A DNA stretch of 63,965 nucleotides, counting the filler, from Hausera hauseri (lineage: Eukaryota), in assembly GCA_046269625.1 (NCBI GenBank). It is 12 parts of 12 records of this genome, joined end to end, with 100 filler letters (N's around TTAATTAATTAA, not from the genome) between each part and the next. Parts side by side here need not be neighbours in the genome. Positions count along the whole stretch, not along the records: positions 42,902 to 50,447 come from JBJURY010007567.1; 11 more parts are not named here. One strand, written 5' to 3'. Position 1 is the first letter of the stretch, and each line of letters starts with the position of its first letter. Position numbers and translations under genes: made by a program. The notes under the pieces were generated by a model, which searched no databases, had not been told where the DNA came from, and saw only the letters and a list, made by a program, of their open reading frames with translations. This document shows, piece by piece, positions 3,015 to 63,500 of this stretch.

Positions 3015-3035
3015 GACTGATTTGTTCTCACTTGA

Positions 3036-3632: not shown

Positions 3633-3699
3633 GTAAATTTATCATTATAATGCTTACAAACAGACATACATAATCTAGCCCGTGAGTGAAACTTATTGT

Positions 3700-8791: not shown

Positions 8792-8793
8792 TT

Positions 8794-8810
8794 TGGCAAC
8801 CCTAGCAGGA
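8794..8810 (+). promoter_or_regulatory. Primer-binding site, probably tRNA-Arg type
   Basis: TGGCAACCCTAGCAGGA resembles the TGGCGACCGTGACAGGA Arg-type PBS of gypsy elements. Confidence 0.6.
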
Positions 8811-15156: not shown

Positions 15157-15229
15157 GCCCGGTTAGCTCAGTCGGTAGAGCATCAGACTTTTAATCTGAG
15201 GGTCAAGGGTTCAAGTCCCTTATCGGGCG
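15157..15229 (+). tRNA. tRNA-Lys(UUU)
   Basis: 73-nt canonical GCCCGGTTAGCTCAGTCGGTAGAGCATCAGAC-TTT-TAATCTGAGGGTCAAGGGTTCAAGTCCCTTATCGGGCG followed by an oligo-T Pol III terminator. Confidence 0.96.
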
Positions 15230-17112: not shown

Positions 17113-17185
17113 CGCCCGATAAGGGACTTGAACCCTTGACCCTCAGATTAAACGTCTGATGCTCTACCGACTGAGATAACCGAGC
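17113..17185 (-). tRNA. tRNA-Lys(UUU), degenerate copy
   Basis: Reverse complement of the 15157 gene with three substitutions, including U33->G in the anticodon loop and a D-stem change. Confidence 0.8.
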
Positions 17186-19008: not shown

Positions 19009-20150
19009 TTTATATTAGTTTCACTGGCGAAATTAGAATGTACAACGCTGTGTGTGTGTTACAGAACGTTTCGAAACTTTAAGTCTAAATTTTATTAGGT
19101 TCCCAAGCGCGTAGAACCTTGAAATTTTCTGGAGAGATGCATTTTTGTCCCTATTTTGATAATTCGTCGTTGAAATTTGAAAAATATTTTTTTAAGTATT
19201 TTTTAATATTTTTTTTTGTTTTTTCTTTTCGGAACTTTAAGTTTAAATTTAACCGTGTTCCGAAAAGCGTAGATGTTTGAAATTTTCAGGAGAGGTACTT
19301 CTTTGTCCCTATTTTTCGAATTCGTCGTTAAAATTTTTAAATTATTTATATAAGTACCTTTAAATAATTTTTTTTTGGATTTTTTTCTCTCGAGTCCTTC
19401 AAAACTTTAACATAAAATTTCAGCGACTTTACGAGGACGCACAGGTTTCAAATTTTCTGGAGATATAAATTTTTGTCCCTATTTTGATAAATCGTCGTTG
19501 AAATTTGAAAAATACTTTTTTAAGTATTTTTTTTTAATTTTTTCTGTTTTTTCTTTTAGGAACTTTATGTCAAAATTTTACCAATTTCCGTAAGGTGTAT
19601 AGCTTTGAAATTTTGAGGAGAGATAACTTTTTGTTCCTATTTTTCGTATTCGTCGTTAAAAGTTTTAAAATATTTATATAAGTATTTTTAAATATTTTTT
19701 TTCTATATTTTTTTTCCTTGAAGCCTTCGAAACTTTAACATAAAATTTCGCAGAATTCCCGACGGCGTACAACTTTCAAATTTTTATCAGATATCATGTT
19801 CTGTCCCTATTTTGATATTTCGTCGTTAAAAGTTAAAAAATATTTTTTTAAGTATTTTTTTTTTATTTTTTTCTGTATTTTCATTATAGAACTTTAAGTT
19901 GAAATTTAACCAATTTTCGAAATGCGTACAGCTTTGAAATTTTCATTACAGATGCTTATCGGTCTCTATTTCGATAATTCGTCATTAAAATTTTAAATTT
20001 CGGTACATTAGTATTTTTTATTTATTTTTAATTAAGAGTCTGTTTTCGACCTTCTGAATTAAATTGCGTAACCAATCAGCGTTGTCGTATTCCCTCCTCC
20101 CAAGCTCCACGTGACAGAGACGTATTTTACGTCACGACGTAATGTTCTAG
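19009..20150 (+). mobile_element. Non-autonomous Helitron/Helentron-like element with internal tandem array
   Basis: TTTATATTAG start, (TG)n microsatellite, six ~164-bp units, perfect hairpin TTACGTC-AC-GACGTAA (20127-20142), then CTAG (20147-20150). Confidence 0.6.
19073..20030. repeat. Tandem repeat, ~6 monomers with alternating 158/170-bp period
   Basis: AACTTT anchors at 19075, 19233, 19403, 19561, 19731, 19890; conserved CCTATTTT and TCGTCGTT cores. Confidence 0.92.
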
Positions 20151-23245: not shown

Positions 23246-23377
23246 NNNNNNNNNNNNNNNNNNNNNNNNNNNNNNNNNNNNNNNNNNNNTTAATTAATTA
23301 ANNNNNNNNNNNNNNNNNNNNNNNNNNNNNNNNNNNNNNNNNNNNTTCTAGCACGCCTGGAGAATTTTGATAAGACA

Positions 23378-24007
23378 TTGCAATTAGCTCAGGACATAGA
23401 AATGGTATTGGATAAATATACCAGAAAAAACAACAGAAGTGATGGAAATAATGATCAAAGTGATCTAAGCGATAGAAATCGGAATGATAGAAACGCTAGA
23501 CGATTTAACAGGAATTATTGGGATTGTAATAAGAACGGTAACTATGATCACAAAAGTAATCGCTATGGTAATCGGAATTTTGATAATAGCCGAAATAGTT
23601 CATCTAGTAAACTAAACTACAATTCGGATAGACGCCTAGATAGCTCTAGAAATTTTAACAATGGAAATCGACAGAATGACAGCCAAAGTTATGATAGTCG
23701 CCAATATGGGGACTCCAGACAAGCCCCGCAACATCAGAATTACAATAGGAATTTGAGTAGATCGAAATCTCCGGTTAATGAAGACGGTCGACAAAGGGTC
23801 GGCAGAAACGGCAACTTGATTTGTTATACATGCGGGCAAGAAGGACACATAGCGAGATCCTGTCCAAACCCACGAAGCGTTTCGTTTGTTGAGCCTAGCA
23901 AAACCAATGTAGTTAAAAATGAAAATCTAGAAGCAATTTACGGTGTTCGTAAAGTCACAGGTATGATCATTGCGATACAAGACTTACGACGTTTTTTAAA
24001 GATCTAA
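23378..24007 (+). pseudogene. gag C-terminus with CCHC zinc knuckle, copy B
   Basis: CX2CX4HX4C motif after an N/R/D-rich linker. Confidence 0.9.
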
Positions 24008-27000
24008 CCTGACATTAAAGACACTAAAGTCTTAGTGGCCATAAACGAGTACGAACATAAGTTACGATTACTAGAAGTTTACCACGGCATGCCTAAACCG
24101 GAGACGGAATATGAACATTCCATTGCCCCGCCAAGGGTTATTGATATGGCACGGAAACAACATTCCTACGATAAACAAAGAGTTAGACGAAACAGGAAAA
24201 CTTGAGACTCCGGATGAGGTAGATTTAGATGTAGAACCAGAATATATGATAGAAAAGGAAACCAAAAGGCAGAAACCGACGAAAATAAAGAATTTTTGGA
24301 ACCACTAATACTTAAAATTACAAAGAATAGGGGCCGTTGTCCATCACTGAGACGAAAACGCAAGGATCTTTCGAGATCCCCAATGATTAAGGAGAAATCG
24401 GGCACAAAGAGAAAAACTAAAATCGCGTTTGACAGCAACACAGAGTTCGCTCTGAACACTCCGGAAATTAAATTAGTTACTCCCGGCGAAATGGATGAGC
24501 CAACGAAATCTGTAAATGAAATAAACGATATATATCCTTTACCTACTAACGGAGAAGAAACAGAACAGGAGTAGAAACTCGATACTGAAAAGTGGGAAAT
24601 CAAACGCTCGTGGAAAAATGCCGCCGAATTAAAAAGAATCAGAACAAATTGTCTCAACCCACAGGTAATGCAACAGAATTTAGACAAACTCAAAGCAATA
24701 AAGCAGCAAGTGGATATCTTGGGGAAGGAATAGCAGTTTGTAGATAGATTATATAATAAAATGAAATTATATAGTGAAGGTAAACTAAGCGAAGCTATAG
24801 ACTTAGATCTGCCTGAAGAAGTGGCAAAAGAAACACTAGTTCGGTGGGAACGTGAGTTAGGATTCTGGATGAAAAGTGAGATGAAATTCCCGGAGGCGTG
24901 GGATAAAACTATCCAAGACATTGAAGCTAGAATCAACCAAGCTCAGTCGCTATTAACTACATTAGAAGCCAACCCGAAATTAAAAGGAGTAACACGTAAT
25001 TTAGAGCGTGCCATGAATGGAATTAGATTTGTAATAGTCGAACGACTCAAGGGAAAACCGGTCAAGGAACGAGATACAGTTGATCGAGAGATGTTTGGTG
25101 TAGACTCAATAGGTATTCCACCCTTAATGGAGATAATAAAAGTCGCTTCTACGGCATCAAAACAATACAGAAGTCTGGAAAATCGTATTAAAAATGAGAC
25201 CGAAAAACGGTCGCAAATATATGGTCTGAGGAATAGAATTATGCATCCAAATAATGACGAAACACAGAAAATAACTATGGCTTGTATGCTGGAATTCGAC
25301 GAATATAAAGACGAGTTCGACTACGCCCGTCGGGTCATTGATTTTATTAAAGGTCCAGACGACGAGCTAGAAGACGTTCACAAAATGTTAGACAAAGCAA
25401 TATTGGCAAAGCCAGAAATCGCTAATCAGTTGAACGATTGATCTAAAGTAATAACAAGGTTGAGTAAACTAATAAACAGTCGAAAAAAAGAATTTCCGGA
25501 GAGCGAACCTACAGTAAAGAAGCGATTAGACGAAGACGCCCGAAAGCTAGATACGATGAAGGCAAAAATTGACATCCGAACTCAATTCGAGGCATTGCGT
25601 CGATTGGAATTTATGGCAAAGAAATAAGAAATAACGATACTAGATGATATATACAAGATTATTGAAGAAACTAACTTTATGCGGAACGCAATGCAACCTG
25701 CTACTTTTATCCGCGATTGAGAGATGTCCGCCTGAAAGGAATACGGTATTTGACAGCCAAGCCTGTCGAGGAAATCTCGATTCGAGACCTTAGAACCTTG
25801 GACTTTTGTCCCAAATATCGATCAATCGTTGAAAAAGCTGTGAAGTTCTTACACCAGCCACAAGAATAGATGGACGGAGCGGATCAAAGGCATCACACCG
25901 AACTAATTAAAATAAAGAATGATTCCCACCTTAGCTTTGAAGAAATCAAATTTTAAAAAAGTTATTAGATGAAATAGATCCAGATTCAAAAAGTATTAAC
26001 GAGATGTATGAACTAGCGCTGCTGATGGTGGAAATGGCGAAAATTAATGACGAGAAATTAAGACAATTGTTGTAGCAGATACAGCAAGTCGAAGAAACTT
26101 GCATTAAAACTAAACAGAGAGTGATAAAGTAAGACGAACTAACTAAAGAATTTGAAGTCTATAAAAACAAATATGCCCTTGCAGAGGCAGAAAGGTCTGA
26201 CAAGTCACAATTCTTACAGAGATGGCAAAGAGATGTCGCTTCCGACTAACACACTATCAAGAACAAGGACTGATTTCGGCTAAAGAATTATGTTCGTTGT
26301 TAACCCTGCTGCACCAAACTTCTGCTAATGGGCGTTGTTTCCGGATAACGAAAATGGTCCAAATGCAGCAGAAACTACAAGAACTCAGAAAAACCATATG
26401 GACCGCAGTTGTGGATAGACCAGCTGATGCACCGTCAAGAGCTATCAACTGCCGGGTAATAAGAACGAACCAAAATGGGAGGCATATTTAGATGCAATGA
26501 TTGCCGAAAACCCGAAAACTCCCATACGATTTAGCGGAACGGAGATATACTCTTCGGACCAAAAATTCAATGTGGAAATGTTTCTGGACCCAGCACAAAC
26601 CGAGAAAGATTTAACTAAGTTAATTAATGTAAACCTCACCGAAACTCCATTAAGACAGTTAGTCCCCACTCTAACCAAATTAGCAATCGAAGGTACCATT
26701 TATAGTGCGGCACCTAAGCTTTTAATTAAAGAATATGCTAAATCTTGTAGGAAAAGGTAGAGGAGACGATCATAGTAAAGGTAGCATCCGACAGGATGGA
26801 TGAGAAGGAACATGAATTTAATACGCGCTCTGTTGTGAGAGATGTATTAGTATGGATAAAGAGCAATGTATACACCAATGAGCTAAACTATAGACTTTAT
26901 TTTAGAGGAAGAATACTAGACGAATTAGAATTATTAATAGAAGTGGGAATTATTCCGGGTGGAGTAAACCGGATAGTGCTAACAATTCCTACCGACGAGA

Positions 27001-27437
27001 CAAAATAAGAAGCCATAAGGAAGGCCAGAGCGGAACAGTGGGTAGGTCGAATCATAGGAGTGCAAGACGCAGCAATGTATTTCGAATATCTGCAAACCGA
27101 CGAAGACAAGAGACAATACGATAAGAATCTAGCGCCAACCAGTGAGGTCGCACCAACTGTAATGAAACAGAAGCGTTCCATCGGTAGACCACGGAAAACG
27201 CAAGAAGAAATCGATTATAATGGAGACTTAATCAGAGAACTGAGGCAAATGTCCATATCAACCTTCAGCACCGATGACGAAGAAGTGAAGGAACTCATGG
27301 AAAAGTTGATACGGATAGTGAACCACCCTAGTCTCGGTGGCGATATACTGAGCGAAAAAGAAAAAGCTATATTTAACGCAGCCAAAACTATGAAAAGTTT
27401 TCGTTGTAAATAATCCAGAAGTACCCTAAATGATGAA

Positions 27438-28276
27438 ATGGTAATTGAAAAAATTATGGTAGAGAACACCGTAGAGGAGTTAAGGAAAGTGTTACTATAT
27501 TTGGCCGTTAAAACCAACCCGGTCCGAGATAACGAATTCAATAAGGCCATTAGCTTGGCGAGGAAGGCTGCCAGAAAACTACCACTAAAAGTGAATAGGC
27601 CTAAATTGTTTGAAAGAGAAGAAGAATGGCAAAATGGGTCCTTCCTTGGCAATAATAGAGTTGAAGACTTGTTACGGAACGTAACCAGAGATAATATAGG
27701 AAACGAGTCAAACTGGTTAATTAACTTCTTAATTATGATGATGTTAATAATACAGATGTGGGCAGTTGCAGTGTACGACTGTGACAAATTTAGACGCGGA
27801 CAAAAATACTCATTAATGGAATTAGAAATGTGCGAAGACGCGAGACCACATAAATTAGAAACAAAAGAGAAAAATTACATGCTATATCAACAATGCGAAC
27901 TAGTTACATTAGATGAAGTAGAATGTATGTTGCGACGATCTCGCAGCATTTTCCATTGTGGACTAGTACATGAACATTCACCCATAATCAAGCCAACCAC
28001 CCCACCAATCCCGATGAATTTAGAACGCAAGCATTGCAAGCAAGGTAGAGAGACGGGAAGAATAAAATGGGACGGCATAGAATTAGAAATTCAGCAAGGG
28101 CAAATAATCAGAGTGTATAAAGTGGCTGCTATGGTGCAGAATACGGCACTGGAAAAGGATTAGAGTCAAACATCGTAGTGGTAGACTTTTACGAAATCGA
28201 GATGCGCCTACAGAAGGTAATGTTTCATAGCGTTACTAAACTTTACACAGAAAACCATAAGTGCCACATTTCAGAT
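27438..28276 (+). pseudogene. End of X fused in frame to the chuvirus-like glycoprotein, copy B
   Basis: One ORF runs VIEKIMVENTVEELRKVL...NWLINFLIMMMLIIQMWAVAVYDCDKF...ECMLRRSRSIFHCG. Confidence 0.88.
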
Positions 28277-28459
28277 TGAAAGGCCTTGGGCAGACTCAGA
28301 AATTTCCGTGGAGTATATCCATTGGATAAAGTCCCCGACTATCTGCTCAATGGAGNNNNNNNNNNNNNNNNNNNNNNNNNNNNNNNNNNNNNNNNNNNNT
28401 TAATTAATTAANNNNNNNNNNNNNNNNNNNNNNNNNNNNNNNNNNNNNNNNNNNNTATT

Positions 28460-30560
28460 CTTCGATTAGCGTGATCCCACGTTCTTCGCTGTCGTTTACA
28501 CCTTTCAGCATTTTGACTTTCGCACACAACTTTTGATAGGTTGTTCAGCTTCCCATGCTCTGCATCCATTTAAACGAAACTCCTGGTCTCTATTCCTGTT
28601 GGGTTTAACAATTCGAATATACGATTAGTTCTCTTTGTTACGAATGTCCCTAAATCGTTGACGTCAGCATCACGAGCATGTCAGGCATCCACCCTATTCA
28701 TCGCCGATTGAGTCTTCGGAAGATGGAGGTTTGCCTCCATGGCTTTCTTCACATGTGACTCTGGAGAGAACAGTAAACACGGCATCATCAAGAGTTCAGT
28801 TTGGATACGTTTGAAGAAGTCGTAGCATCTGTGCATCATTCATAGGATCGTAAGAGGCCATTGGAGCCTCATGCCAGAATCAATCATACATAAGTGCAAC
28901 GAAGACAGCAAGTTCAGTCAGTTTTTTGCGCTCTCTGACAGTCAAAGTCAGTTGGCCTTTAAACAGTACAATCTTCATAGAGTAGATGGTCTTTGTCATC
29001 CACCTTGCATAGTACATCGCACCAGGTACATCCGCTTTGGCTGAGCCTCCACCAAAATAGACTAATCACAGTCGACGTAGGTCAAGATAATCATCTCTTC
29101 GCTATTGACAAGTTATGACATTTGTGTAGAAAGTCATCATTTCCTTCCCCTGGATTTCGGTGTCATAGTTGAAGAGTTTATCTTTTGCTGGCGCGAAATC
29201 CGTTTGTTGGATATCAGGCAATTTCGTCCGGAACTTCTTGAATAGGCTTACTTCAGGTCCTCCTTTTTCACCAAACAAATCCGTGAATATGCATCAAAGG
29301 ACGACTTTCATGTTGCGGTGGCAACAGCAAATATAGATAAGTTCATGACTAACGGCCTTTTCCATGAGAATACAAGCTCCTTCGTGAATACCAGTGTTGG
29401 ACGCTGTTGTATCAAAAACCATACCAATCACTGTATCGCGTAATTTCCACTCATCTAGAACTTCTAGGAAAGCAGCAGCTTGTTCACTAGCTGTTCCTTT
29501 TCCGATTTTTAGAACAACCAGCAGCTTCTCAGTTGCATAACCAGTCACGATCACAGCAACTCGGTTCACAGTTTTCTCAGCATCATCAATGTCAGGAAGC
29601 TGTTTGCCATTCAACTCTACAGAAAAACGGCCTTGATCTGCTACAGCCACCTCTTTGCTTACGGCCATCCTACATCTTATCGTGCTTCGAGACAATGCCA
29701 GGTCGTCAACAGGATGTCACCACAAACATAACTCCACGGTCAGACAAGTTGACCCTGTTCAAAGCATCAGGAACTTCTAGGTTTACTATTATATTCTTGG
29801 CTGACTTCTTGTACTTAGTCTTTCTGGCTGATCGTCATTCATCGAAAGATGTTGGAACTGGAACTGAAGTACATGTCCGTGTCACCATCGCCCATATCAT
29901 TACCTTCAGATAAAGTAAAAGCACTTCCTAGTCATTTTTTAAGTCATCATGTACTTTTAGCCATTGTGACCTTTCAGCCTTACAGTTGTCTTTGGCTTAC
30001 TCACGTGCTCTTTTCGTGGCCTCTTTTTGCAGCAGTTTGCGGTCCACTCCTGCCATGCTGCAGCTGGTAACGTCGATCCTTTGCATGATAAGGAATTGCT
30101 TATCCTCATCATTAGTCATTATCTCTGTCACGTTCTTAGTTGCAATATCAAATAATTTCTGGAGATCGTCGCTGAATGATTGTTTTTTAACCCTGCAGCT
30201 TTTCAATCACTGTTCTTCTTCAGTAGCTGATATTCATAATATAACTTAGAGTTTTTCTGCGGGGTCGATTTGCTGTATTGGGAGTATAGCTTTCTTCCAT
30301 ATCTCCAAAAGCTCAATGATGGTAAGGCGAATACTTTCTTTCACATTATGATGCTGTTTCTGATGATGATAGAAGACACATTTGTACCAATTCTTCATTA
30401 TTTTCCCAGACGTTTTGATTACAGTCGAGAATACATATGTTATTCATGGAATTCTTATGCAATGAACAGATACTTTTTATGAACTTCTTTTGCTGTACAG
30501 AGACCAAGTCAAGCACTTATGCAAGTTACGTACATTTTGTGGGACGTGTCTCAGTGCGTT
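28460..30560 (-). pseudogene. hAT-like DDE transposase (hATm/Cc8K15.2-like), decayed
   Basis: LQKLFDIA; VFDTTASNTGIHEGACILME...CCH; RDDYL; YARWMTKTIYSMKIVLF; VNDSEERGITLIEEY. Confidence 0.8.
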
Positions 30561-39177: not shown

Positions 39178-42100
39178 AGTCCGATTTCGAAATAAAAAAA
39201 ACTAAATTCCATATATAAATTATTGTATATGTCTAAGAGTAGTGGCCATTTTTCTTTCCGATCACTACGTAATGCAATCCAATCGTATTCTTGTAAAATA
39301 TTTGCTCCTCCATGAGTTGAACCGGTTACTCGAACATTTAGACTGGAATGAAATCTTGTAAGGTTGGAAATAATAATCGGCAATTCAACATTTATGGCCC
39401 ATACAAGTCCCCGTATGTTAGTTGAGAGGTGGCTAACAACTAACATGTGAGCTCGCAATTCCAATTCCATGTCATCTTGATAAATAAATCTTTCAAGCCA
39501 TCCAACGAACATATATCATCATCTATGTCTCTTGACGCTTTATTTATAGTTACCATGCATTCCTGAACATCTCCCCTAAACATTAAGAAATCAAAACTAT
39601 CTTTATGTTCTGACATTAATCCGTATGGATGTGGAGGTAATATCAATTCTCTTGATTTATATTTTCCTTTGTTCGACATTCTAAAATCGTCTGGATCATT
39701 AAATACTACAGTTCGCAGTTCATAACTCGTAAAGTAGTCCATTAAGCGTTCGTCTAAAGTTCTACAGTATTCGAGGTTATATTTTTCTTTCCAGGACTCA
39801 CAGAAAAAATTAACAGAATTATTATTGGCTAGTTGTTCGAAATGAATTGGCAGATATAAAAGCCGAGAAAATAACATGTACCCAGAGAATCCCATATGCA
39901 AAATATTGAAAGCTTCCATTGTTAAATTGTTGACAACTGCATCATCTTCACAAGCTTCTTGTAAAACGTCAATTGCTGCTTCTGATACTCCAGGGTCAGT
40001 GTCATGTATTTGCTTCAATAAAAAGCTTACTCCCCCATTAGCAAAATATGGTAATTTTGCCCTTAAAAGTACTCTGAGAAATTTTGTTGTATATTGACGA
40101 ATGCACACAATGGGTGAATTGACGGCAACTGTCAACAGATTTAGGTCTATAGATGGACGCGTATAATCAAGACACCCGAGTATCAAATTTGCATAAACAT
40201 CACTGGATCCATAATCGAGTAACAGTTTAAAAATATGTAAAAATTTATATTCTTCCAAAAGTGCTTTGCCGAATTCTGTTGAAGTCATTCGACCAAGAGG
40301 AGGAAACTTATACGAATTACATTTGTAATTAAATTCATATTCGCTAAATGATGAATCTTCAAACATCGCGTCAGTAGTTGCATATATTATAAGTTGTTTA
40401 TAATCATATGCTACTCCGTATTTCAGACATTCACGAAATGATCTATTCATAAATTTTAAAAACCGAACCAACTCTTCACTAATGGTCGAATTTTTGGTTG
40501 ATTGAACTAAACAATTAATTATATCGATAAGCACAAAATTGGCTTTTAAAGAAAAACTCCATGTCAGCTGCAGAGGTACAAAATACTGTTCCGCGTAACT
40601 TAAAGAGTCCATAATGGACTTGTCGGATTTTGGATTTTGAATAAAAAACTCCAACAGCCTTTTCAATATTCTGTTGATTACATCTCTAACGAAGTTTGCA
40701 GACATTGTAGAACTTTGAAGGGCTCTTGCAAAGATCATTAATAAATCCCAGTCCCATAAATTGTAAAATTGTTTAGAATGATATAAAGTGTCATCTAAAA
40801 CATGACTGAAACGTTCAGCGAGTTCCAGTAAAACATTGAACTTTTGACTTTTACTATTCACTGACGAACTTTTCTTCGATGCTAAACTTGTAGGGACGTA
40901 GCAACTTTCAAGAATATTATCTATGTTTGCCGGATGAATAAATGTCATAGAAACGGATAGTCCGTCATTTATAGTACTTATTGGCTGAATAATAGAATTC
41001 ATCAAAGGAGTGATATCAAAAAGCTCCTGTTCAAGTAAACTGTGGATTTGATGCATCCATAATATGGTTTTTTTCGATCTAGGATGAGTGAAAAGTGTAG
41101 CTGTATCAATTTTATTAAGAAGTGGATGATCTGAAGAAAGTAGAACCGAAGCTTTATAAGAAAGTATGACTAGAAGAAGACCTGCTCTGACAGACTCATT
41201 TTCATTTTGCACAGCAGTTGCAAGAGCTTCAAGAAGATTATTTTGAACAAATATGCCTATAACAATGACGTGGGAATTGTCAAGAATTTTGATTCGATTT
41301 GCGGATAAATAAGGTAAACAATCGTAACATTGTGTCACAAAAGATTCATCATCGAGTCGCCAAGACGGTATGTATTTGCCGTTTTTTTGATCTTCGATTG
41401 ACTTAGTACAAGTACGGAAATCCTCAAATTCTGGAGGGGGTCGAAAAACGTGGAATAACTGAAATAATAAAACTAAAATTCTCTTCCTAATATTAGTAGA
41501 GCCCATTTTCAAGAGACTAGTTAAAAACAAAATTGTCTGGCTGCTACGTCCATATAAATAGAGAAATCCTGGCCAAGAGTGAAGTATTTTCAATAAAACA
41601 AAAATAGAATGTGTTTCAACTTCCCCATGATCATCATTGAAAGCCCTCGAATCCTCTTTTGGAACTGACGAAAGATCATACAATATTGAAAATGGTGCTA
41701 AGGATCTATGGAAATATCCATCGGGTATGTGACTCCGAAATAACGGGTGGGAAACAAGCTTACGCAGCAACAAAAGGACTGCTTCGATTATGTTTAAATC
41801 AAAATTAATAATTAGACCTTCTTTGATGAAAATGGCTGTCTGAAATGCTTCTAGAATTTGACTCTGATGTATTAAGTTGGGAATAAAATTGGTAAGATGA
41901 AATAATATCATCAAGGTAGGTCGTAATGCTGGGTCAATCGGTGTAATATTGCATTTTGAGCATGTTACACAACTACCAACCATACAATTTACAATATAAA
42001 TTAGAATGAGTTTTGGCAGAATCAAAACTAATCTAAACAGCAATCTCATGGCCGGAATTCGCTCAACGTCCCTTTTATTATAATACTGTGGAGAAACGGC

Positions 42101-42801
42101 ATCGTGATACGATAGATCCAAGGATTGTCTTAGGAAAAATTCAACTATCATTTTCACACAAATTTCCGAATGACGGCTATTTAAAACATGATATCGTAAA
42201 CATCGCAATGTTGCAACTCTCGGTGATTTATATTGACTCCATAAACAATATTTAATTAATGAGTAAATGGATATCATAAAATGGATATCATAGACCAATA
42301 CATTCAAATAAGAAATACATGTTTCCAAATCATATTCAAAGTCATCATTGCAAAATTGTGATAAAATTTTGGCATAACTAATTACAGCATCATTAGACTT
42401 TTAATTTTTGCTAAATCAAAACTATTTTCCTTATCACTACGTCCTACTTTTATTACTACATTGATAAATGAATCTGATTTATCACATATTGTGAACATGA
42501 CAAAAGTGTAACGATTTGGGTTGTTGAAAGGTAAATTTACATTAATAGGCAGACAGTGATGTGGGTAATAGTCGCAGTGTGTTCCAAAAACAAAAGTCTG
42601 ACTAACCAATGTCGTTCGATTAAAAATCACGGATTTGTGTCCCGAAATGCATGAAAGCCAATCGTATGATTGCTGACACCAATTATAATGATCTGCGGCC
42701 GAAGAGTTCTTAAAATTATTAGCAAAAAGTATAATAATGTCAGGTTTAACCTGCATTTTTGGGTGCATGGAAAACGACTTTGATATTTCCAGAGGCACCA
42801 A
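39174..42801 (-). pseudogene. RICTOR: RICTOR (mTORC2 subunit), divergent; a 962-aa ORF with frameshifted flanking pieces
   Basis: VATLRCLRY; ERIPAMRL; ILHSWPGFL; IRQYTTKFLRVLLR; LLKQIHD...AIDVLQEAC; LPPHPYG; in the next frame ELRAHMLVVSHLST...SLNVR...GANILQEYDW...WPLL. Frame changes at ~42390 and ~39480. Confidence 0.9.
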
Positions 42802-43024
42802 NNNNNNNNNNNNNNNNNNNNNNNNNNNNNNNNNNNNNNNNNNNNTTAATTAATTAANNNNNNNNNNNNNNNNNNNNNNNNNNNNNNNNNNNNNNNNNNN
42901 NGAAAAAATTAGATAATTGTAAAGTTTGGAGTATGAAGAGTATAATTATGAATATTACAAATTAATGAAGATTTATAAAAATTGAAATAATAAATGTAAA
43001 AAATGAAATAAAAAATTAAAAGTA

Positions 43025-43130
43025 CCATTCTAAAAATGGAACTAAACGACATGGTGTCGAATATTCCAATTTTAAAAATTCAAAAATTCCATTTCTAAAA
43101 ATGGAAACAAACGGTATGGTGTCGAACGAC
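43025..43130 (+). repeat. Two-copy ~64-bp tandem repeat
   Basis: CCATT(T)CTAAAAATGGAA..AAACG..ATGGTGTCGAA at 43025 and 43089. Confidence 0.75.
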
Positions 43131-44764
43131 CCAGTATAAATACCTTTGCAAAACTCTCTTAAAAACTCTCTCGAACCTATTAAATTTAACTTTACGGACT
43201 ACAGACTAGGTTAGACCCTACGTTAGTTTATAAAATTATTGCTATTAGGAAATTGACCATGGCTGAACAACATGATCCTTACGACCACAATTCTACAGAA
43301 GGAGTAACAGGTATGCGTCCTTTCAGATTATTTGCGATTGTATTTTAATTTTTATATTTTTGTATAAATTTGTATTTATCAATAAATATTTTGAAAATGA
43401 AATTGAATTGGAATGGGGTAGCGATGGATAAGGTGTTGTGAACAATCGGAAGATCGGACGGTGATACTAAGAAAGCGATGATTAGAGGACTGAAAGTTGT
43501 TTGGAAAAATTCAATGAATCCGAAAGTATGACGAAACCGATGGAAGATATAAATATATGATTGAAAGTTGTTTAGAAATCAGACGACTAGAAATTATGAT
43601 GATGGTTAAGTAATACTATAAATAAATGTGTTGACGTTTATTATGTTTCAATTGTAGTATGAATATTAATAATAAATTTAACATAAAAACAGTCAACTTT
43701 AAGCTGATTTATTTTTATGAATTTCAGGGGTTGATTGTATCCAGGACAAGTCGATAAGACTTGGTAATTGGAGGGTGAAAACTTTTGATAATACTTGTCA
43801 CTGTGGTGTCAGTTCGTCATGTAATTCGGGTTGAAATGGTCGTGTTGATGATCGTGATTGCAATTTAAATTTAAGAATCGACTGTATACGACCAGCGGAA
43901 TTGGATAATGTTAACATATGCTACAGATGCGACATGCAGAGGTCATTAGAGAGCATGCGTCTATTTATATGTATCATAACAATCAATAGCAAATAACGGA
44001 ACTGACCGCGTCTACATTTAATTATAGCGTATAAGAAATTGATATGTTAGTAATCGACATGATCATGTACTCGTTTTCATTTTCAATATGAATTTTGACT
44101 GTATGTATGAATTTTGAAGTTACTCATATGTGGAAGTTACTGGTATGTGTTTTGGGAATTCTGAGAGTGATTCTGGTTTGCATGTGGAATTTGATGAATA
44201 TACTCATCTATGGACCTGAGTTAACTTAGGATTTTCGTGTCAGAAAATAATCGTTTGAACTTCCACTTTTTACATATTCCACATCTATATGGGTCAGCAT
44301 GTTAAATGCATCAACTTAATAATTGCTTGATTGTGAAACACGCATTTCAACATTTTTGTGTCAGGATTAGCGGGAGTTTTATGGGGATTCTGCCGTTCCA
44401 TTATGTCGAAATTTGCAGATCTTATGGACAATGATGCTAGTGAGAGTTGAAGGATAATGCTTTGTAACGAGATGTGCCTCTGTGGTATTAATTCAATGTC
44501 CCGATATTGTGCTGTTTACCGAAGTGACCATCGAATTAAGTTTAGATCAAATTGTGTGCAGTTTCGAACCTTGTATGACTGATTTAAGTTCGTGTATAAA
44601 TATAATATCATAGCTTGAAGAGCTATCAACTCGGATATATAGGTGTAATATAATAGTTTAAATGAGTGAATATAAATATATCGTCAAAGTACGCATGTGT
44701 TACGTATTGATAACATTCGTTTTATAATTAGAAGTGAATTTAAACTTGAGATTAATATAAATAA

Positions 44765-45000
44765 ATTTTGGTTAGATAATTTTCTTTTATTGCTTATTCA
44801 TCAAATCAAATTTGGAATTAATATAATTAAATTTTGAGTGAAAAGATTTCCTTTTATTGATTATTCATTAATTAAATACGAGATCGGTGCAATTAGACTT
44901 TTGGACGAAGCGATTTCCTTTTATTGATTAGATTTGAAATCAATATAATTATTTTTGGACAGAACGATTTCCTTATATTAATTGTTCATTAATATCACAT
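44765..45000 (+). repeat. Degenerate ~55-66-bp tandem repeat, four copies
   Basis: Recurrent TTT(C)CTTTTATTG.TTA core. Confidence 0.7.
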
Positions 45001-45017
45001 TTGTATTAATTACGCAA

Positions 45018-45030
45018 TGGTGACCGCAAT
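45018..45030 (+). promoter_or_regulatory. Possible PBS of a separate plus-strand LTR element
   Basis: ...TACGCA A TGGTGACCGC; downstream gag-like EYLHDFEEMVDPW and integrase-tail-like PFKVIKYINP remnants. Confidence 0.35.
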
Positions 45031-45468
45031 CTTTTATCTTGTATTAAATGCCCCGTTTAATTATGCGAAACCCGTCGGTAGAAGATGTCGCGGATAACAT
45101 ATACAGTATTGGGAAATTTCGAATATTTGCATGATTTTGAAGAAATGGTCGATCCTTGGGAGGAACAGGAGAGATGAATCAACTGGTGAAGAATGTGGAG
45201 CAAGTGGAGCAATCATGATCATCGGAAGGAAAAATGCATTTCTTGCAACGAATAAAGGATCTAAAGGAGACCCATGCGCCGACGATATGAAATTGTTCTA
45301 AGAAGGAACATTAGTCTACCCTCAACTCACGAAATCCTTCAGATATTGGAGACATCCGAGAATAACCTTTTCAGATATTGAAGGCAACAAGATTATTGGT
45401 AGACGTGAACTCCTACGGATTTATATGTTAGGTACCATTTAAGGTTATCAAATATATTAACCCCTGTA

Positions 45469-46158
45469 TCACCAACACCAATGTCTCAGTTCTTTTTGGT
45501 TCTGAGGTTCCATACAGTCAGAAATTTTGTTCAGCAATGATTTATCTGGTTTCGATCCTCCTTCGCCAACTATATGACCAAGGTAGGATACGGCATTTTG
45601 AGCCCATTTACATTTCTTTGGGTTTAGCTTTAATCCAGCTTGTTCTAGTCTCATTAGAGTGTCCTCAGTATCCTTTATATGCTCTTTTTCGTCTTTTGAT
45701 GCAGTCATTACATCGTCTATGTACGCAAATGCATTTTCAAGTCCCATTAGCAACTTATTCATCATCCTGGTAAATATGGCTGGTCCAGTGGTAATTCCAA
45801 ACGGCATAACGTTGAATTCGTATATGCCATCATGAGTTTTAAACGCAGTCTTATAACGATCTTCATCTTCAATTTCTACCTGCCAATATCCGGATTGTAA
45901 GTCCAGAGTAGTGAACCATTTTGCTCCAGAGAGCCTATCTAGAGCTTCTTTCACAGATGGTAAGGGAAAAGAATCTTTCATTATGACAGTATTTAATGCT
46001 CTGTAATAGATACAAAATCGATGTTTCGTGGTTTCTTTCTTTCTGACCATAAGAATAGGTAAGTACCATTATCTAATACTAGGTCGAATTATATCGGCCT
46101 TTAACATACGTTTTACTTCTTTAGTTATTTACAGTCTTAGATAATGCAGTGGCGGATA
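45469..46158 (-). pseudogene. Ty3/gypsy reverse transcriptase (truncated before RNase H)
   Basis: EVKRMLKADIIRPS; FCIYYRALN; LDLQSGYWQV; KTAF; VMPFG; AYIDDV; LKLNPKKC; YLGH. Same frame as the protease ORF. Confidence 0.95.
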
Positions 46159-47376
46159 CTATTTTGGCAATTTCTGTTCCTCGAGATCAATTTCATAGTT
46201 AGAACCAGGCTTTTTCTTAAGAAGTATAGTTAATTTCAATGCCTTTGCGCGACCAATATTTTCTTTGTCTTTTGCAATAATTAATTTATATCGACATAAT
46301 AATTCGTAAAACTGGCAATAAGCTTCTGGCGAAAACTTCGTATCGACGTGTGGTGGAAATTCTGCGTATTTATACGGTTTCTCTTCGACCGTTATCGCTG
46401 ATACCTTGTAGGTTTGTCCTAGAGTAGTGTTAGCATATAACTTTACTGGAGTTTGAGCATTATTCACTATCCTCACAGGTATTCGACCGGATGCTACTCG
46501 GGTTAATATATTGCTTAATATTATATTCGGGTTTAGCGTTTCTTTCGGCTCGAAATATACTGGTATATCGTCGTCTTGACAAATTTGTGCAAATATTAAC
46601 AATTCCGTTCTAGGCGGAATGTTCTTGTCAACCGGAATCCATACTTCTCCGGTTTCTCTTTCTTTATTAACTTTAGTCCCTTTTATCGGTCCGAGCTCGA
46701 TTAACTTCGAGGTATTTAGATCTATCGCGACGTTTGTTAGACGTCTTAATACATCACATCCGATTACTACGTCGTCTGTTAAATGTTCCATTATAGAGAA
46801 TTCATGTTGGAACGTCTGTCCCATTATTTTAAGACTAGATTTCCATTTGAATTTTGGTCTTGATTCTTGTCCGAAAGTTCCTATACGTCCGGGATCGGTT
46901 GCAAGTGGCGGTCTTAATTGACTTCGCAGTGTTTTCGGTATCGATCCGTCTTTTATAAATGATCTCTGTGATCCGGTATCTACTAGTGCGTAGACTTCCC
47001 AATCGTCAATACTAATTTTTGCGAAAGGTCTACCTTCCTTTATCTTAGGTTGTTTAGTGACGGATATCTTGTAACCATTTATATTAATTTCTGGTGCTTT
47101 ATTTTCGGCTACCTGCCGTAGTTCCTCAATAGGATACAATCCATTATTCACACCGTTTTCGTTGTCTCGGTCCGGTGTATTGCTTAGCGGTTCTCGGTTG
47201 TCTTGATTACGGAAGGATTGCATTCGTTGATTATCCCAATTTAATGAGTTGGTTTCTACGCTCCGTGAAATCCTTGGAGAGTATATTATCTTGCGATCAT
47301 CTGCTGGCCAGCGACATAATTCGGATTTTTCTCTGGTTCGGTACATTTTTCGTAGCATGCCGTATTGTTTTGTCAC
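46159..47376 (-). CDS. Aspartic protease plus beta-rich PR-RT linker
   Basis: ALVDTGSQRSF; DVVIGCDVL; IPPRTE...IPVRIVN...VKLYANTTLG. Confidence 0.92.
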   Translation of the reverse strand: MTKQYGMLRKMYRTREKSELCRWPADDRKIIYSPRISRSVETNSLNWDNQRMQSFRNQDNREPLSNTPDRDNENGVNNGLYPIEELRQVAENKAPEININGYKISVTKQPKIKEGRPFAKISIDDWEVYALVDTGSQRSFIKDGSIPKTLRSQLRPPLATDPGRIGTFGQESRPKFKWKSSLKIMGQTFQHEFSIMEHLTDDVVIGCDVLRRLTNVAIDLNTSKLIELGPIKGTKVNKERETGEVWIPVDKNIPPRTELLIFAQICQDDDIPVYFEPKETLNPNIILSNILTRVASGRIPVRIVNNAQTPVKLYANTTLGQTYKVSAITVEEKPYKYAEFPPHVDTKFSPEAYCQFYELLCRYKLIIAKDKENIGRAKALKLTILLKKKPGSNYEIDLEEQKLPK

Positions 47377-49516
47377 TTCATAGGGATCTTCATAACTGAA
47401 AGGCTTCCGATATATTTCTGAACTATAGGGTTAAGAGATCTCTTATCACTGTCTTCGTATTGCGGCGCCGAAGGGGGCAACATTGGTAAAGGCGGCCTAA
47501 GCGCCTTATGATTGCTTGTCTTGGAGACCGCGTCTCCTCCCTTAGGCTCATCATCATCCGAATGGTTTCTTCGGACTTTTGTATTTCTTTGTCTTATAAA
47601 AAATGTAGATTTTCTCTTTCGTTTTCGATTGTAGTAACTGACATGTCTCTCCACGTCGCTTTTTCATTTGTTTTCTTTGTAAGCTTTCAGAAATTTTCCA
47701 AACGGCGTTATAATTGACGTTAAGATTTTACACGAAAATCCGGTTAGAGTAAATATTTCATATCCATTTATGATAGATTGTATTATAGTCTTTACGAGTT
47801 GTACCATAAAGTAGATGGCTAAAAATCCTGATGCAGCTTGTCCGAAAATTAAAAATTTTCCCCAAATCTTATATAATATTTCTGTGGTGACTCTTTGATA
47901 ATGGTTAACACCAAGTAGGGACTCACATTTTGCTTGATAGCGAGTATCGTCCATCACAGTCGACATGGCTCTATTTAGCTCATGCGTGCGCTGTCGAGGA
48001 AAACTGTCTAAAAGCTTCAATTTCCTTTGGTCTGTAAATCCCTTTACTCGTGGTGTCGGCGAATTTATCATCTGTTATACCTTTTAGTAAGTTTGTTCCC
48101 GTTAATTTGCCAGGTGTAGCTATTATTCCTCCATTTGGCAGACTTACCCAATCTGTCTCGCTTCTTTTAAACATAGGTTTGCCTAAACCTGCTTTGCAAT
48201 CTTTGTGTCGCGTTTTCTAGAAGGACTCTAGTGAGTGGCATAGCCAATCGGGGTACATTTTGATATATGACTGGCAATTCTTGTATACAACGTTTTTCTT
48301 CTACGTTTAAAGATACGTCTCGTTTTTCGCATTCGTAGGTCAACAGGACTTCTCCGGTGACTCTTCCGAAAATACCTTCCTTCATCGGAATTACAGGTGA
48401 TGCTAGTTCTGGGTTCGCGTAAATTAAGGCCAATTTGGTTCTCATGATCTCCATATCCAATTTACAATCGTTTGCAATTATTTTGTAATATAGCTCTGCT
48501 AACCCAATTTGTCCTTTATAATAGAAGAAGTCGTCCCTATTCTTTAAATAATCTTCTATTCTTACATCTTGTGTTTCCAAATTGAAGGTAGTTATTGCGG
48601 CCTCTGCCACAAAGAATGCCTCGTAATTGATGGCATACATTACTACGTTGCACCGAGAAAGCATTTGTTTTTTTATGAATTTCAATCCGTGATCCTCGGA
48701 TATCAGTATCGTGGGTGTGGAATGCTCAGCGACGTTCTTTCTTGGTCTGGCGTTATTGTCAGTTGTCTCTACATACCTTTTTCCTGTGGTTTCATTGAAA
48801 TTTATTTCCTTGATTTTAATAAAGTTACAATCGTTCATAAGTGGTGGAGCCCAAATGACTATTGAGTTTCTGAAAGTGCAGGCACCATCTTGGTTATGGC
48901 ACTTTTGGTTTTCGGTACGCGTTTTCGTAATACTATGGTACATCATCTTTTGGTTCCTCATTTCTGTTTCGTAGAAATCGACCACTATTATTCCCGATTC
49001 TCTTCCTTTTCCGGTATCATATTCACCTCCTTTACAGTATCCGGTGTGCATATCCAGTTTTCCGATTGCTACCTTATATACTCGATTTATTTTTCCTGGT
49101 TGGGCCTCTAACTCCATCCCATCCCATCTTAATCTTCCAGTTTCTTTAGCTTGTTTACACTGTTGTCTATCTAAATCTATGGGTATTAGCAGTGTCGTCG
49201 GTTTTACTATCGACGATTGTCCGTGTATGTTTCCGCAGTGGAAAACACTTCGCGATCGTCGCAACATGCACTCTATTCCGTCTATTGCAATCAGTTCACG
49301 TTGCTGGTATAAAAAATACTTTTTCTCAATGGTTACTAACTTGTGAGGTCTAGCGTCTTCGCATAATTCCAAATCCATCAAGGAATATCTTTGTCCGACC
49401 TTAAACTTATCGCAGTCGTATACGGTGATTGCACCGAGCTGTCTTATTAACATCATAAGTGTTATTAGTTTAATCATCCAGATTGATTCACTGTCTCGCA
49501 TTGAGTTAGTTGGCAT
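47373..49516 (-). pseudogene. Full-length chuvirus-like class III fusion glycoprotein (~700 aa; two frameshifts, one stop)
   Basis: Signal peptide; ITVYDC..SLMDLELC; ECMLRRSRSVFHCG; GYCKGGEY; LYYKIIANDC; GIFGRVTGEVLLTYEC; CIQELPVIY; PLTRVL; TM region IWGKFLIFGQAASGFLAIYFMVQLVKTIIQSIINGYEIF..TGFS.KIL. Confidence 0.85.
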
Positions 49517-50547
49517 TAAATTTCTTACAACATCTTCGATTCCGGTGGTTGGCCTGTTTCCATCTTTGTCATCAAATAACTTGGATCAATTTATCTCTCT
49601 AGGTATCTTCCTAGCAGCTTTTCGGATAAATCCAATAGTTCTATTGACTTCATTTTCCTTTCGCGAATTCGTTTTGATTGCCAAGTACAATATTACTTTC
49701 TTTATTTCTTCCTTAGTATTCTCTACCATAATTTTCTCGATTAGAACTTAGTCTGATAAGTTGCTCTTATTCATTTTCAACAGAAATGTTCTCATAATTC
49801 TCGCAGCATTATATATTGCTTTTTTTTTCGTTTATCATCTTGTCTCTCGGTCCTGAATAGTTTACTATTTTCATAGTGTATCTCAGCAGATCGCTTAACT
49901 CTTCGTTCTCGGAGTTAATAGCGGGCATGGATAATTGCCTTAGTTCTCGTGTCAGGGCTGCACTTTGGTCAATATCGTTACTTATCTTTTTCTCGACCTT
50001 CCAACTAGTCGTTTCTGTTTCGGCGCAGTTGGTGTTGCTTCGCTTATTGGTACTAGATTCTTATCGTATTGTTCCTTATCTTTCTCACTCTGGAGGTAGT
50101 CAAAATACATGACAGGGTCTCTGACTCCCATAATGCGTCCTACGCAATGTTCATCTCTTACTTTTCTCGCAGCCTCATCTTTTGTCTGTTCGTCGGTAAT
50201 TATGGCCACTATTTGATTTGTTTCTTCTGAAATAATTCCAACATCTGTTAGTAGTTCGGGTTCGTCCAGTATTCTACCTCGAAAATATAAACGGTAATTT
50301 ACTTCATCTTTTTCACCGTTTCGCATTATTCATTGCTTTACTGCTCCAGCCGATGTCGTTGTACATTCATTTTCTTATTCTTCCATTTCTTCAGCCGATA
50401 TTTTTACATTAACCGTCGTTTTGGGTTTAGCTTTTAAGAATTCAGCGNNNNNNNNNNNNNNNNNNNNNNNNNNNNNNNNNNNNNNNNNNNNTTAATTAAT
50501 TAANNNNNNNNNNNNNNNNNNNNNNNNNNNNNNNNNNNNNNNNNNNN

Positions 50548-51027
50548 GTTTGAAAAACAACGTCGTGTTTAAGTGGCCTAAGAGATGCTTTCTATGATTG
50601 ATGAATATCTAAAATGCATGTTGATGTTTTCATCATTAGTTGAGGTTGATGGCCTTCCTGAGGTCTTGACTGCTCAACGACCCTCAAAAAATGATTTGTA
50701 CCACTGAAAAACTTGTGATTGTGATAAACATTGACAGCCGTAACATTTTTGTAACATTTCCAATGCATCAGAACAAGAAATTTCATTTTTAGACAAAATT
50801 TGATACAAATTTTTTGTTCTATATATTTATCCATGTTAAAAATCGCCGAAAACAATTTTATTCAAACACAAAAGAGGCCGTAATTTCTAACTAAATAAAT
50901 CAAATGTCATGAAAGTTCTGTCAGTTTTTCACAACAGTCATACCACCCTACTAAATAAATATACACATCGATATTCAACGCATGTACTTTTTATAAATAG
51001 TCTCATTACGTTTTGTCCACAGTAGTA
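50548..51027 (-). mobile_element. Mariner transposon 5' fragment
   Basis: EQKICIKFC...LEMLQKCYGCQCLSQSQVFQWYKSFFEGR...SGRPSTS HTH region; TIR-like TACTGTGGACAAAACGTAATGAG upstream. Confidence 0.8.
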
Positions 51028-61399: not shown

Positions 61400-63500
61400 A
61401 ATGTAGAATTCAACACGATATGAATTATAATAAAAGTATGAAGAGGAAAAACCTTCACCTAAAAGCTACAATTTGGCATGCGAGTAGGCGATTGCTATAT
61501 GGGATCGAGCCAGGACTCAACAAATAGACTCATGCATCAGAAAACTTAAGAAACTACACGAAGAGTACTTATCCCTAAAGAAACACAGAACTAGACAATG
61601 GGAAAGTGATAGACAGAATGAAGAAATCTTTAAAAGTGAACTCAAACAGATGTTCGATATTTCCGCAAAAGACGTTTTGACTAAACGCAAAAAGCAAGAT
61701 CCAGAATTTCTATAAAAGCAAAGACAGAGCGTGTTTTCTTGCAATATGAGTGCAGTTGACCTTTAAATTAATGCTAAAGAATACAGAAGGAGACAACGTG
61801 AGGAAAAGAAAGTCCTAACAAAAGTATGATATGAAGAAAGGCAGACGAAAGAAATTTCCAGTCAAACAGGAATTTTCCTCAGCACCATATATTGAGTCTG
61901 AAAGGGAAAATGAATATCAATCTGTAAAATCAGTGCCCATTGAGGTTGCTAGTAATGATGCAGTAACAGAAACTCCTAAGAATATTTTCACATCCCCCGT
62001 GGTTGTTGGTGCTCTACACCGAGTCGATCTTTCTGAATGGAGTGCGGTATTTGTTGTAGGAGCTAGTGTTCAGGTTCTCGGTCATGAGATTCATGATACA
62101 ACACTATCTAGAAGTTCAATCATATGATGTCAAATGCAAGTTAGAAGAGATGTTGTAACAGCAGAAGAAACAAAAATTTCCTTGAAAGGTCCTCTTCTTT
62201 TACATTAGGATGAAGAATTGTTACTGGATACAGATGGATCAAAGGTAGACCGATGTTCTACCACTGTTACTGGAAACGGAGATAAAACATTACTGGGTAT
62301 ACCAAAGATAGGGAAAGGAACAGGTGATGCACAAGCAAATGCTCTTGTTGATGCTATCATGAAATGGAACCTTAGTTCAAACATTGTCTTGTCTTTTATA
62401 CAACAGTAAGCAATACAAGACTTCGCAAAGGAGCTTGTGTCCGACTTGAATTTTTTTGTGGAAACTGCATTAGATTGGATCGCGTGTCACCATCATATAA
62501 CGGAAATTATACTGTCTGACGTCTTCTGTTGTCTGCTTGGCTCAACTGAAAGCCCACAACAGAATTTTTCAAGCGATTTCAGAAGCAGTGACCATTAATA
62601 AATCACTCTAAGTGTACATCTGCAAGTGCCGATCTCTTTAGTAATCCTGTGCTAAACAACCTACATCGAGAAATGCTCGATTATTTGACTCATACACTTG
62701 GAACACAACAATCACGTGATGATTATCAGTTAATATTGCGCTTGTTTCTCTTGTTCCTTGGTGCGCAATATCCTGGTAAAGTAATTAGAGCACCGGGGCC
62801 TACACATCACGCACTGAAGTTATTCCTATTGAGAACACAGTTTCAGATGACAGCACGGCAACTCAGCAACATATCATACTTTGCTTTGTTTTTCAGTCTT
62901 GTGTATGTCAGATACTGGAATGAAGTGCCAAGTGAAATTAGGGTTTCATACATTGACGTTGAAATATCGTCTGTTCTCACCATATATCCGAATAAACCAG
63001 TTGCAGACAAGGCACACGCAGACACTTCCAGACATCTGTGGTTTCTATCCTAGCACTTTGTTGCACTTGCATTTTTTTCTTACATAATCCAACCAGAAAC
63101 AAAACTGCTAATGGTAAAAAACTTACAGCGTCCATAATTTACAGGTATTTTACATTCAAATGTACAGATGAAGCAGAACCTGTCATCTTTGAGGATCTTG
63201 TAAGACAGAGAACACAGTTACATTTAATCTTTTGATTGAAGAATGATCAACAAAAGCAAAATCATTCTTGGAGAAACACCCCGGTTTTCAAGGAACTTTG
63301 GAAGCCGGCACATAAATTGACTGTTGTTAACGATGCCACTATACATGGGATATGCCTAATTGAAAAAATACATTAATACTTTAACACAAGATGAAGAACA
63401 GAAGCAATTTGTTCTTCGACTGGTGGCAAGTCACGGAAAGAAATTTCCTTCTGCATCAAAGGCAGCTGTTATGTCACAGACCATTGACTATTTGTCATGT
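61400..63500 (+). pseudogene. hAT-like DDE transposase (hATm/Cc8K15.2-like), decayed
   Basis: LKQMFDIS; LLGIPKIGKGTGDAQA; FYTTVSNT..RKGACVRLE; IACHHHITEIIL; RDDYQL; RAPGPTHHA; RHLWFLS; VVNDA..GICLIEKY. Confidence 0.85.

Follow-up and report, generated by a model that had tools for sequence, protein, structure and literature searches.

A decayed, highly repeated Ty3/gypsy copy in Hausera hauseri with a class III-type env directly before protease and reverse transcriptase

A stretch of 63,965 nucleotides from the Hausera hauseri assembly GCA_046269625.1, comprising 12 parts joined end to end (hereafter the window), carries in one part, contig 9, a viral-type glycoprotein gene immediately ahead of a retroelement protease and reverse transcriptase. 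This locus raises the question of whether such an arrangement belongs to a lineage of Ty3/gypsy elements with env between gag and pol, or to a single nested or misassembled copy, and whether the order is new, as the first-pass annotation implied.

Organisation of the contig 9 copy

Profile searches place on the minus strand of contig 9 (42902-50447) the tail of a region here called X, followed by env (PF24664), protease (PR) and a gypsy reverse transcriptase (RT), and the PF24664, RVP and RVT_1 matches bear out the order read there in the first-pass annotation. The features, in the direction of reading, are:

49590-50447, minus strand: C-terminal part of X, broken and ending at the contig end, 52-61% amino acid identity to contigs 2 and 5
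49430-49483, minus strand: hydrophobic stretch that hydropathy predicts to be an internal signal peptide for env, in a frame continuous with the end of X
47664-49429, minus strand: env, class III-type (Monjiviricetes-like) fusion glycoprotein (PF24664, E 4e-33 and 3e-17; cysteines kept)
47781-47843, minus strand: predicted transmembrane anchor of env (hydropathy)
47050-47663, minus strand: hydrophilic env-PR linker, ~200 codons with one frame break, tiled by divergent contigs
46747-47031, minus strand: retropepsin PR, ALVDTGS at 46969-46989 (RVP, E 2e-6)
46360-46680, minus strand: conserved domain between PR and RT (PR-RT spacer), which may be a degenerate dUTPase-like fold, 21-25% identical to four relatives
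45472-46158, minus strand: Ty3/gypsy RT core, YIDD at 45712-45723 (RVT_1, E 1.5e-37), with stops in its first part

Compared with PDB sequences, the RT matched Ty3 RT best (E 3e-41 and 1e-40), with retroviral RTs behind (E 3e-19 or weaker), and it is assigned to Ty3/gypsy (Metaviridae). The copy is interrupted by stops and frameshifts and ends at ~45470, just past the RT core, such that PR-RT of the Ty3/gypsy pol order is present and the sequence stops before RNase H (RH). RNase H, integrase (IN) and a 3' LTR are all absent after the RT core in contig 9, and none from this element's family was found in the whole window. Composition is uniform from X through RT, where the AT skew of the sense strand lies at +0.16 to +0.34, and differs past 45460 (-0.04 and +0.04).

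The env matches PF24664 in two pieces, at 48170-49585 (E 4e-33, profile positions 6-424 of 653) and 47667-48074 (E 3e-17, 494-601 of 653). It had been described as complete, which holds for its coverage only, as frameshifts and stops disrupt its reading frame around 47980-48170. All 13 cysteines are retained in 10-11 of 11 relatives, and in seven of the 11 hydropathy scans showed env flanked on either side by a hydrophobic segment. Mismatches at codon positions 1, 2 and 3 numbered 110, 72 and 265 over 482 codons, and env is judged to evolve under purifying selection. Based on the PF24664 match above cut-off, the conserved cysteines and a by-eye likeness to Platyhelminthes_C1a, the contig 9 env is classified as HSV/gB-type (class III). 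Searches of env against PDB sequences and against longer proteins gave no match, and viral and metagenome contigs likewise yielded nothing to env or to alignment A1.

As the first-pass annotation had claimed, LTR, PBS and gag are absent between env and PR: the 617-base linker holds no LTR match, PBS-like motif or PPT-like motif, and the ORF spanning most of it has no gag match. Profile matches of the PR-RT spacer were weak (dCTP deaminase, E 1.1; PF00692 in one of five members, E 0.059), and a degenerate dUTPase-like fold is one possible reading.

Sister copies and region X

Contigs 2 and 5 carry the upstream portion of related copies:

8250-8791, plus strand: putative 5' LTR, contig 2, start lost at the contig end (from sequence)
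9179-10222, plus strand: gag, contig 2, with a degenerate CCHC knuckle at 10181-10222 (Retrotrans_gag, E 0.007; blastp to the gag of P0137, E 4e-14)
10225-13988, plus strand: X, contig 2, ~1,250 codons, rich in E, K, R and L, without a predicted membrane segment
13989-14525, plus strand: env signal and start, contig 2 (alignment A1)
23346-28280, plus strand: third sister copy, contig 5, with gag end, CCHC (23822-23866), X and env start (zf-CCHC, E 8e-8; PF24664, E 2e-9)

The gag-X-env structure previously claimed for these two contigs stands, with gag, CCHC, X and the start of env all recognisable; the LTR and PBS claimed for contig 2 are retained in weaker form. There, CA is followed by TGG at 8790-8796, with a PBS-like TGG motif at 8794, and the LTR-like sequence stays putative because the window holds no second copy of it. 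All three window copies contain stops and frameshifts. They share ~65% DNA identity and 42-72% protein identity, and are regarded as related subfamilies, not as the one family previously supposed.

Joining the env-PR-RT of contig 9 to the gag-X-env of contigs 2 and 5 through the homology of X and env places env between gag and pol. In all three copies X and env lie in one common frame. Approximately 1,600 codons separate the start of gag from the env signal, env occupies ~610, and ~230 lie between the env stop and the protease site, with an estimated coding span of ~10.5 kb. The gag of the order proposed below is taken from subfamilies only ~65% identical. A candidate second env-pol junction on contig 1 was rejected: its env piece of ~300 bases is followed by host-gene pieces, and its pol is attributed to another lineage because its RT is 31% identical to that of contig 9.

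Mismatches in X at codon positions 1, 2 and 3 numbered 401, 319 and 759 over 1,379 codons, the contig 9 tail showing a third-position excess against both contigs 2 and 5, and X is judged to be maintained by purifying selection. No credible match to X was found in Pfam, NCBIfam or PDB, and Atlas returned a top score of 0.86 with low recognition. Similarly, blastp against 150 env relatives found no match, and an HMM comparison with 19 long env relatives found none (best E 0.03-0.1 in this 19-sequence set). An AlphaFold model of one piece of X was all-helical but unreliable (pLDDT 46).

The env-PR junction in other copies and relatives

The junction had been thought to be known from one copy only; other copies cover it in two public runs, X1 (possibly the window's own sample) and X2. 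In X1, summed depth was 667-23,833 in all 20 element bins compared with 25-73 in six of ten flank bins; the contig 9 element is highly repeated, and depth was rejected as a copy number since summed depth is no copy count. Across the junction, all 30 bins had a depth of at least 379 in X1, and 29 of 30 were covered in X2, the tiling pieces being divergent (81-88% identical). We consider the env-PR junction to be a property of the family and not of one copy.

Seventeen long env relatives were scanned from databases. In ten of them env is followed by PR in a single open frame; RT is also present in five, a gag marker lies ahead of env in three and the complete PR-RT-RH-IN order is found in four. 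RT ahead of env occurred in none of the 17. In the linker of contig 9, as noted, no PPT or LTR follows env. Like the proposed element, P0127, P0129, P0140, P0130, P0138 and P0276 have env-PR(-RT-RH-IN) in one open frame, and the linker-PR-RT of contig 9 aligns in one piece to P0127, P0129 and P0140, all three among the top env matches. Identity to contig 9 is 27-33% for the top env matches and 42-51% for the RT core in the six polyproteins with RT, and four share the PR-RT spacer. None of these six polyproteins matches X of the window copies, and several database polyproteins, unlike contig 9, carry a duplicated protease or additional sequence at the C terminus.

These data bear directly on the possibility that contig 9 is a single accident, a nested insertion or an assembly error that fused gag-X-env to the pol of some unrelated element. 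The assembly is short and fragmented, no single piece spans the junction or bridges the full 800 bases from env anchor to protease site in X1 or X2, and, as previously noted, no single contig or run piece in the window, X1 or X2 extends from gag to RT. Against this, the junction is tiled in both runs by divergent contigs and has no site at which many molecules start or end, composition is continuous without LTR remnants, and env and PR-RT searches retrieve the same relatives, whose domains have this same order; a fusion is largely refuted and very improbable.

We therefore read contig 9, with high confidence, as a decayed, 3'-truncated, highly repeated Ty3/gypsy copy with env directly before PR and RT. 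The likely order is gag-X-env-PR-RT-RH-IN, likely expressed as one long polyprotein. Contig 9 holds X-env-PR-RT, two sister subfamilies hold gag-X-env, other copies cover the junction, and relatives in the databases have this order in open frames. The earlier proposal of a Ty3/gypsy lineage in which env lies between gag and pol is upheld, the refutation checks set for it having come out in its favour in the linker, the junction tiling and the relatives.

Alternatively, the order could be correct with gag-X-env and pol as separate frames, pol being reached via frameshift, read-through or splicing. Contig 9 has a stop closing env as well as the linker frame break, and only three contigs in X1 and one in X2 carry an indel at that break, so that reading through from env into PR is held as likely, not proven. 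The env stop is, however, not common to most covering contigs (26 contigs, 860 of 876 in summed depth), env and PR share an open frame in the ten relatives noted above, and the env of Burro elements is in frame (PMC6431247), which makes separate frames improbable.

Published elements and implications

The implied novelty of the rearranged order fails because env before pol has been in print since 2019 (Arkhipova and Yushenova, PMC6431247 section 7) and has been surveyed in three phyla, in planarian, nematode and bryozoan elements (PMC13524379). The env-before-pol order itself is not new; what is left is X, in which no domain was recognised. The env/pol order is also reportedly flipped in a Ty3/gypsy element among the nematode non-canonical ERVs of Sacco et al. 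2022.

The GAG-ENV-POL HSV/gB-type errantiviruses of Platyhelminthes (Smed_errantivirus_1-6, Schmidtea mediterranea; Chary and Hayashi, PMC13524379) likewise carry a Ty3/gypsy pol preceded by gag and then env. Compared by eye, the env piece shares with the Platyhelminthes_C1a rows eight cysteines in the same order and a long insertion before the last, and differs from the Nematoda_c2 rows and from the single Nematoda_C1 row compared (PMC13524379); it appears to resemble the Schmidtea group most, as judged by eye without a computed alignment to the published sequences. The coding span of ~10.5 kb compares with 16.9 kb listed for Smed_5 (PMC13524379), or ~10.9 kb should that figure take in flanks of 3 kb. 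That survey takes elements with intact ORFs and full RT and integrase; the window's three copies, all broken, fall outside it. In the PMC13524379 text consulted, no long insert between gag and env was found to be described for errantiviruses.

The Burro/GYPSM1 giant gypsy elements of planarians (PMC6431247) share an N-terminal gag with CCHC, a long accessory region, and an env with mononegavirus-like matches before PR, which is in frame in Burro and probably so in the contig 9 family. Burro has two or three CCHC knuckles compared with one seen here, its ORF1 of 4,873-5,140 aa exceeds the ~1,600 codons from gag to env, and its dUTPase-like domain between PR and RT has a weakly supported counterpart in contig 9. 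None of the Burro cargo domains (MATH, ubiquitin-like (Ubl), BCL2, BIR, ankyrin and Smc; PMC6431247) was found in the scanned parts of X (Pfam, E≤1, P0001-P0003), the scan covering all but ~110 codons (12209-12539). X probably forms a helical region with an accessory or scaffold role, at the position that holds this cargo in Burro.

On the host, an IFT56 piece shows 64-76% identity to proteins of fish, annelids, corals and molluscs without distinction, with no flatworm among the named ones of 120 matches listed; a search with RICTOR gave no match. We tentatively suggest, as a joint proposal whose odds are less than even, that the elements form a gag-env-pol lineage distinct from Burro, possibly from an unsurveyed host group, and that its gag-env slot holds its own selected helical protein of ~1,250 residues without known relative, which would serve as a scaffold in the particle or as a module for interaction with the host.

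In the polyprotein we favour, the gag-X portion would remain cytosolic and the hydrophobic segment ahead of env would act as an internal signal that signal peptidase of the host cleaves. The chain would come back to the cytosol through the env anchor, and there the element's own protease would free PR, RT, RNase H and integrase. Joined at first to the env tail, pol would have an easy route into budding particles, and a class III-type env would let these particles move between cells. The element might instead move only within its cell lineage, with env kept for another task, for example to anchor at membranes or to fuse cells, and without infectious particles being formed; PMC13524379 (section 9) calls the transmission mechanism outside Drosophila unknown, while the purifying selection on env and its 13 of 13 retained cysteines fit a folded fusogen, and we regard strictly lineage-bound movement as unlikely.

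The contig 9 family represents one more lineage among env-before-pol retroelements. The slot between gag and env appears to accept very different cargo in such elements: weak matches point to Bcl-2-like and ubiquitin-like domains in certain relatives, and a probably helical region occupies it here.

Organisation and state of the element

Contig 9 (42902-50447) carries, on its minus strand, a Ty3/gypsy copy that reads, in order, the tail of region X (the long region between gag and env), a fusion glycoprotein (env), a linker, a protease, a spacer and a reverse transcriptase (RT). The X-env-protease-RT order described in the first-pass annotation was confirmed by Pfam matches to env, RVP and RVT_1, as follows:

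Contig 9, minus strand: env, PF24664 (Monjiviricetes_fusion), two pieces, Pfam E 4e-33 and 3e-17
Contig 9, minus strand: protease, Pfam RVP, E 2e-6
Contig 9, minus strand: RT, Pfam RVT_1, E 1.5e-37

Ty3 RTs were the best relatives of the contig 9 RT in a search of solved structures. RNase H, integrase and LTR are absent from this copy, which ends at about 45470, and the copy is dead because stops and frameshifts affect X, env, the linker and RT. In contigs 2 and 5, gag and a CCHC knuckle are followed by X and the first part of env. As DNA identity among the three copies is only about 65%, they are sister subfamilies, and the gag-to-RT order therefore rests on the X-env stretch common to them.

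The env-protease junction

The env-protease junction is not an accident, and four results stand against that reading. A scan of the contig 9 linker found nothing that matches an LTR and no motif resembling a PBS or PPT, in agreement with its earlier description as free of LTR and PBS. The sense strand is continuously A-rich from X to RT (AT skew +0.16 to +0.34), a bias that is gone past 45460. The element family is also present in two public sequencing runs, X1 and X2. Summed contig depth in X1, which does not equate to copy number, was 667-23,833 over the element (20 of 20 bins), and in the flanks 25-73 in six of ten bins and 301-3,239 in the remaining four. Across 46850-47900, X1 depth was at least 379 in all 30 bins and X2 gave cover in 29 of 30. 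Sixteen pieces were listed, with a further 1,732 behind them; they include contigs 81-88% identical to the contig 9 copy that together cover the stretch between the env anchor and the protease. The X1 tiling is thin at a single point, an overlap of 10 bases, which two X2 pieces bridge, and no one piece listed from either run crosses the whole junction. X1 may derive from the sample that gave the window, but pieces of this divergence are other copies. The junction, previously reported as seen once, is thus covered by other copies as well.

An env HMMER search of 1.84 billion representatives yielded 444 matches, 17 of them at E≤1e-30. Domains were scanned in 17 of the 150 relatives listed, chosen by rank and length: protease follows env in one open frame in ten, with RT also present in five and integrase in four, a gag marker lies upstream of env in three, and RT lies upstream of env in none. 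The contig 9 linker-protease-RT segment aligns as one piece to three top env matches (32-34%). A one-off nested insertion or misassembly, the alternative raised initially, is countered by the tiling of the junction in two runs and by the env-to-protease order shared with relatives.

Several env relatives (P0127, P0130, P0131, P0138 and P0276) have at least two protease-like domains downstream of env. Another, P0129 (HBK71150.1), is an animal-type env-PR-RT-RH-IN polyprotein under a Flavobacteriaceae MAG label, and is probably a mis-binned host contig.

Probable polyprotein, predicted membrane topology, and region X

X and the env signal lie in one frame in all three window copies. The stop closing env in the contig 9 copy is missing from most run contigs (26 contigs, 860/876 summed depth). 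Read-through from env into protease appears likely rather than proven, because an indel matching the linker frame break occurs in just three X1 contigs and one X2 contig. Hydropathy analysis identified two hydrophobic segments, one ahead of env and the other close to the env C-terminal end, both present in 7 of 11 relatives, and none in the gag-X or protease-RT pieces scanned. The predicted arrangement would comprise an internal signal peptide ahead of env, a lumenal env ectodomain followed by a membrane anchor, and pol in the cytosol, where the element's own protease would free it; tethered to the env tail, pol would be loaded into budding particles. A second hydrophobic stretch downstream of the predicted anchor could alter this topology.

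Mismatches at codon positions 1/2/3, counted pairwise among the three window copies over stretches picked from tblastx matches and hence not independent, were 110/72/265 in 482 codons of env and 401/319/759 in 1,379 codons of X. Both env and X are thus proteins under selection. The main env piece has 13 cysteines, each of which is kept in 10-11 of 11 relatives. X spans about 1,250 codons in which E, K, R, L and I are abundant, and comparison of all but about 110 of these codons with Pfam, NCBIfam, PDB, the ESM Atlas and the env relatives produced nothing credible; a model of one piece was all-helical at low confidence (pLDDT 46). The protease-RT spacer is a conserved domain with weak dUTPase-family hints (E 1.1; one of five members at E 0.059).

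Host, other window features and published elements

The window is made up of 12 short contigs with spacers between them. On contig 1 (minus strand, 150-7940), an env piece of the element family (roughly 300 bases, 86% identical to contig 2 over 224 bases) is followed by a broken, intron-free IFT56 piece (6007-7202; 69-74% to an annelid protein) and then by a gypsy gag-pol of a different type. The host is an animal: in database comparisons, proteins of fish, annelids, corals and molluscs all show 64-76% identity to an IFT56 piece, and no close relative was found among the 120 best of 1,439 matches. An intron-free RICTOR-like ORF of 986 codons (contig 8, minus strand, 39440-42400), with no close database relative found, is either a retrocopy or a host gene with few introns. 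Contig 3 contains two inverted tRNA-Lys(TTT)-like genes (15157-15229, plus strand; 17113-17185, minus strand) in a 92%-identical repeat, possibly tRNA-derived repeats, and contig 4 a degenerate tandem array (19069-20029, units 70-80% identical). Two decayed, related coding stretches (28760-29620, minus strand; 62220-63030, plus strand; 27-35% identity), whose scanned ORFs gave no credible Pfam match, are by eye presumably DNA-transposon-like, and we take 50640-50830 on the minus strand of contig 10 to resemble the start of a mariner-type transposase.

GAG-ENV-POL elements with an HSV/gB-type env are known in Nematoda, Bryozoa and Platyhelminthes according to Chary and Hayashi (PMC13524379), whose table holds 9 flatworm, 10 bryozoan and, by term counts, about 36 nematode rows. 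The observation of env between gag and pol was confirmed and strengthened, but its interpretation is not a novel one, the design being already published there. By eye, in part 7 of the 114 parts of the supplementary file, env shares its order of cysteines and a long insertion with the Platyhelminthes_C1a rows, the nearest being the Schmidtea mediterranea errantiviruses Smed_5 and Smed_6. These may contain an insert similar to X, because they are the two longest Schmidtea entries in that table. No description of X was found in the open-access text portions of the literature examined. Tests for the size and cargo domains of Burro, a giant planarian gypsy element, found neither feature in the parts scanned here, and the element is thus not classed as Burro. 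It would work like the published GAG-ENV-POL gypsy elements, and the remaining interest lies in region X and in a possibly unsurveyed host.
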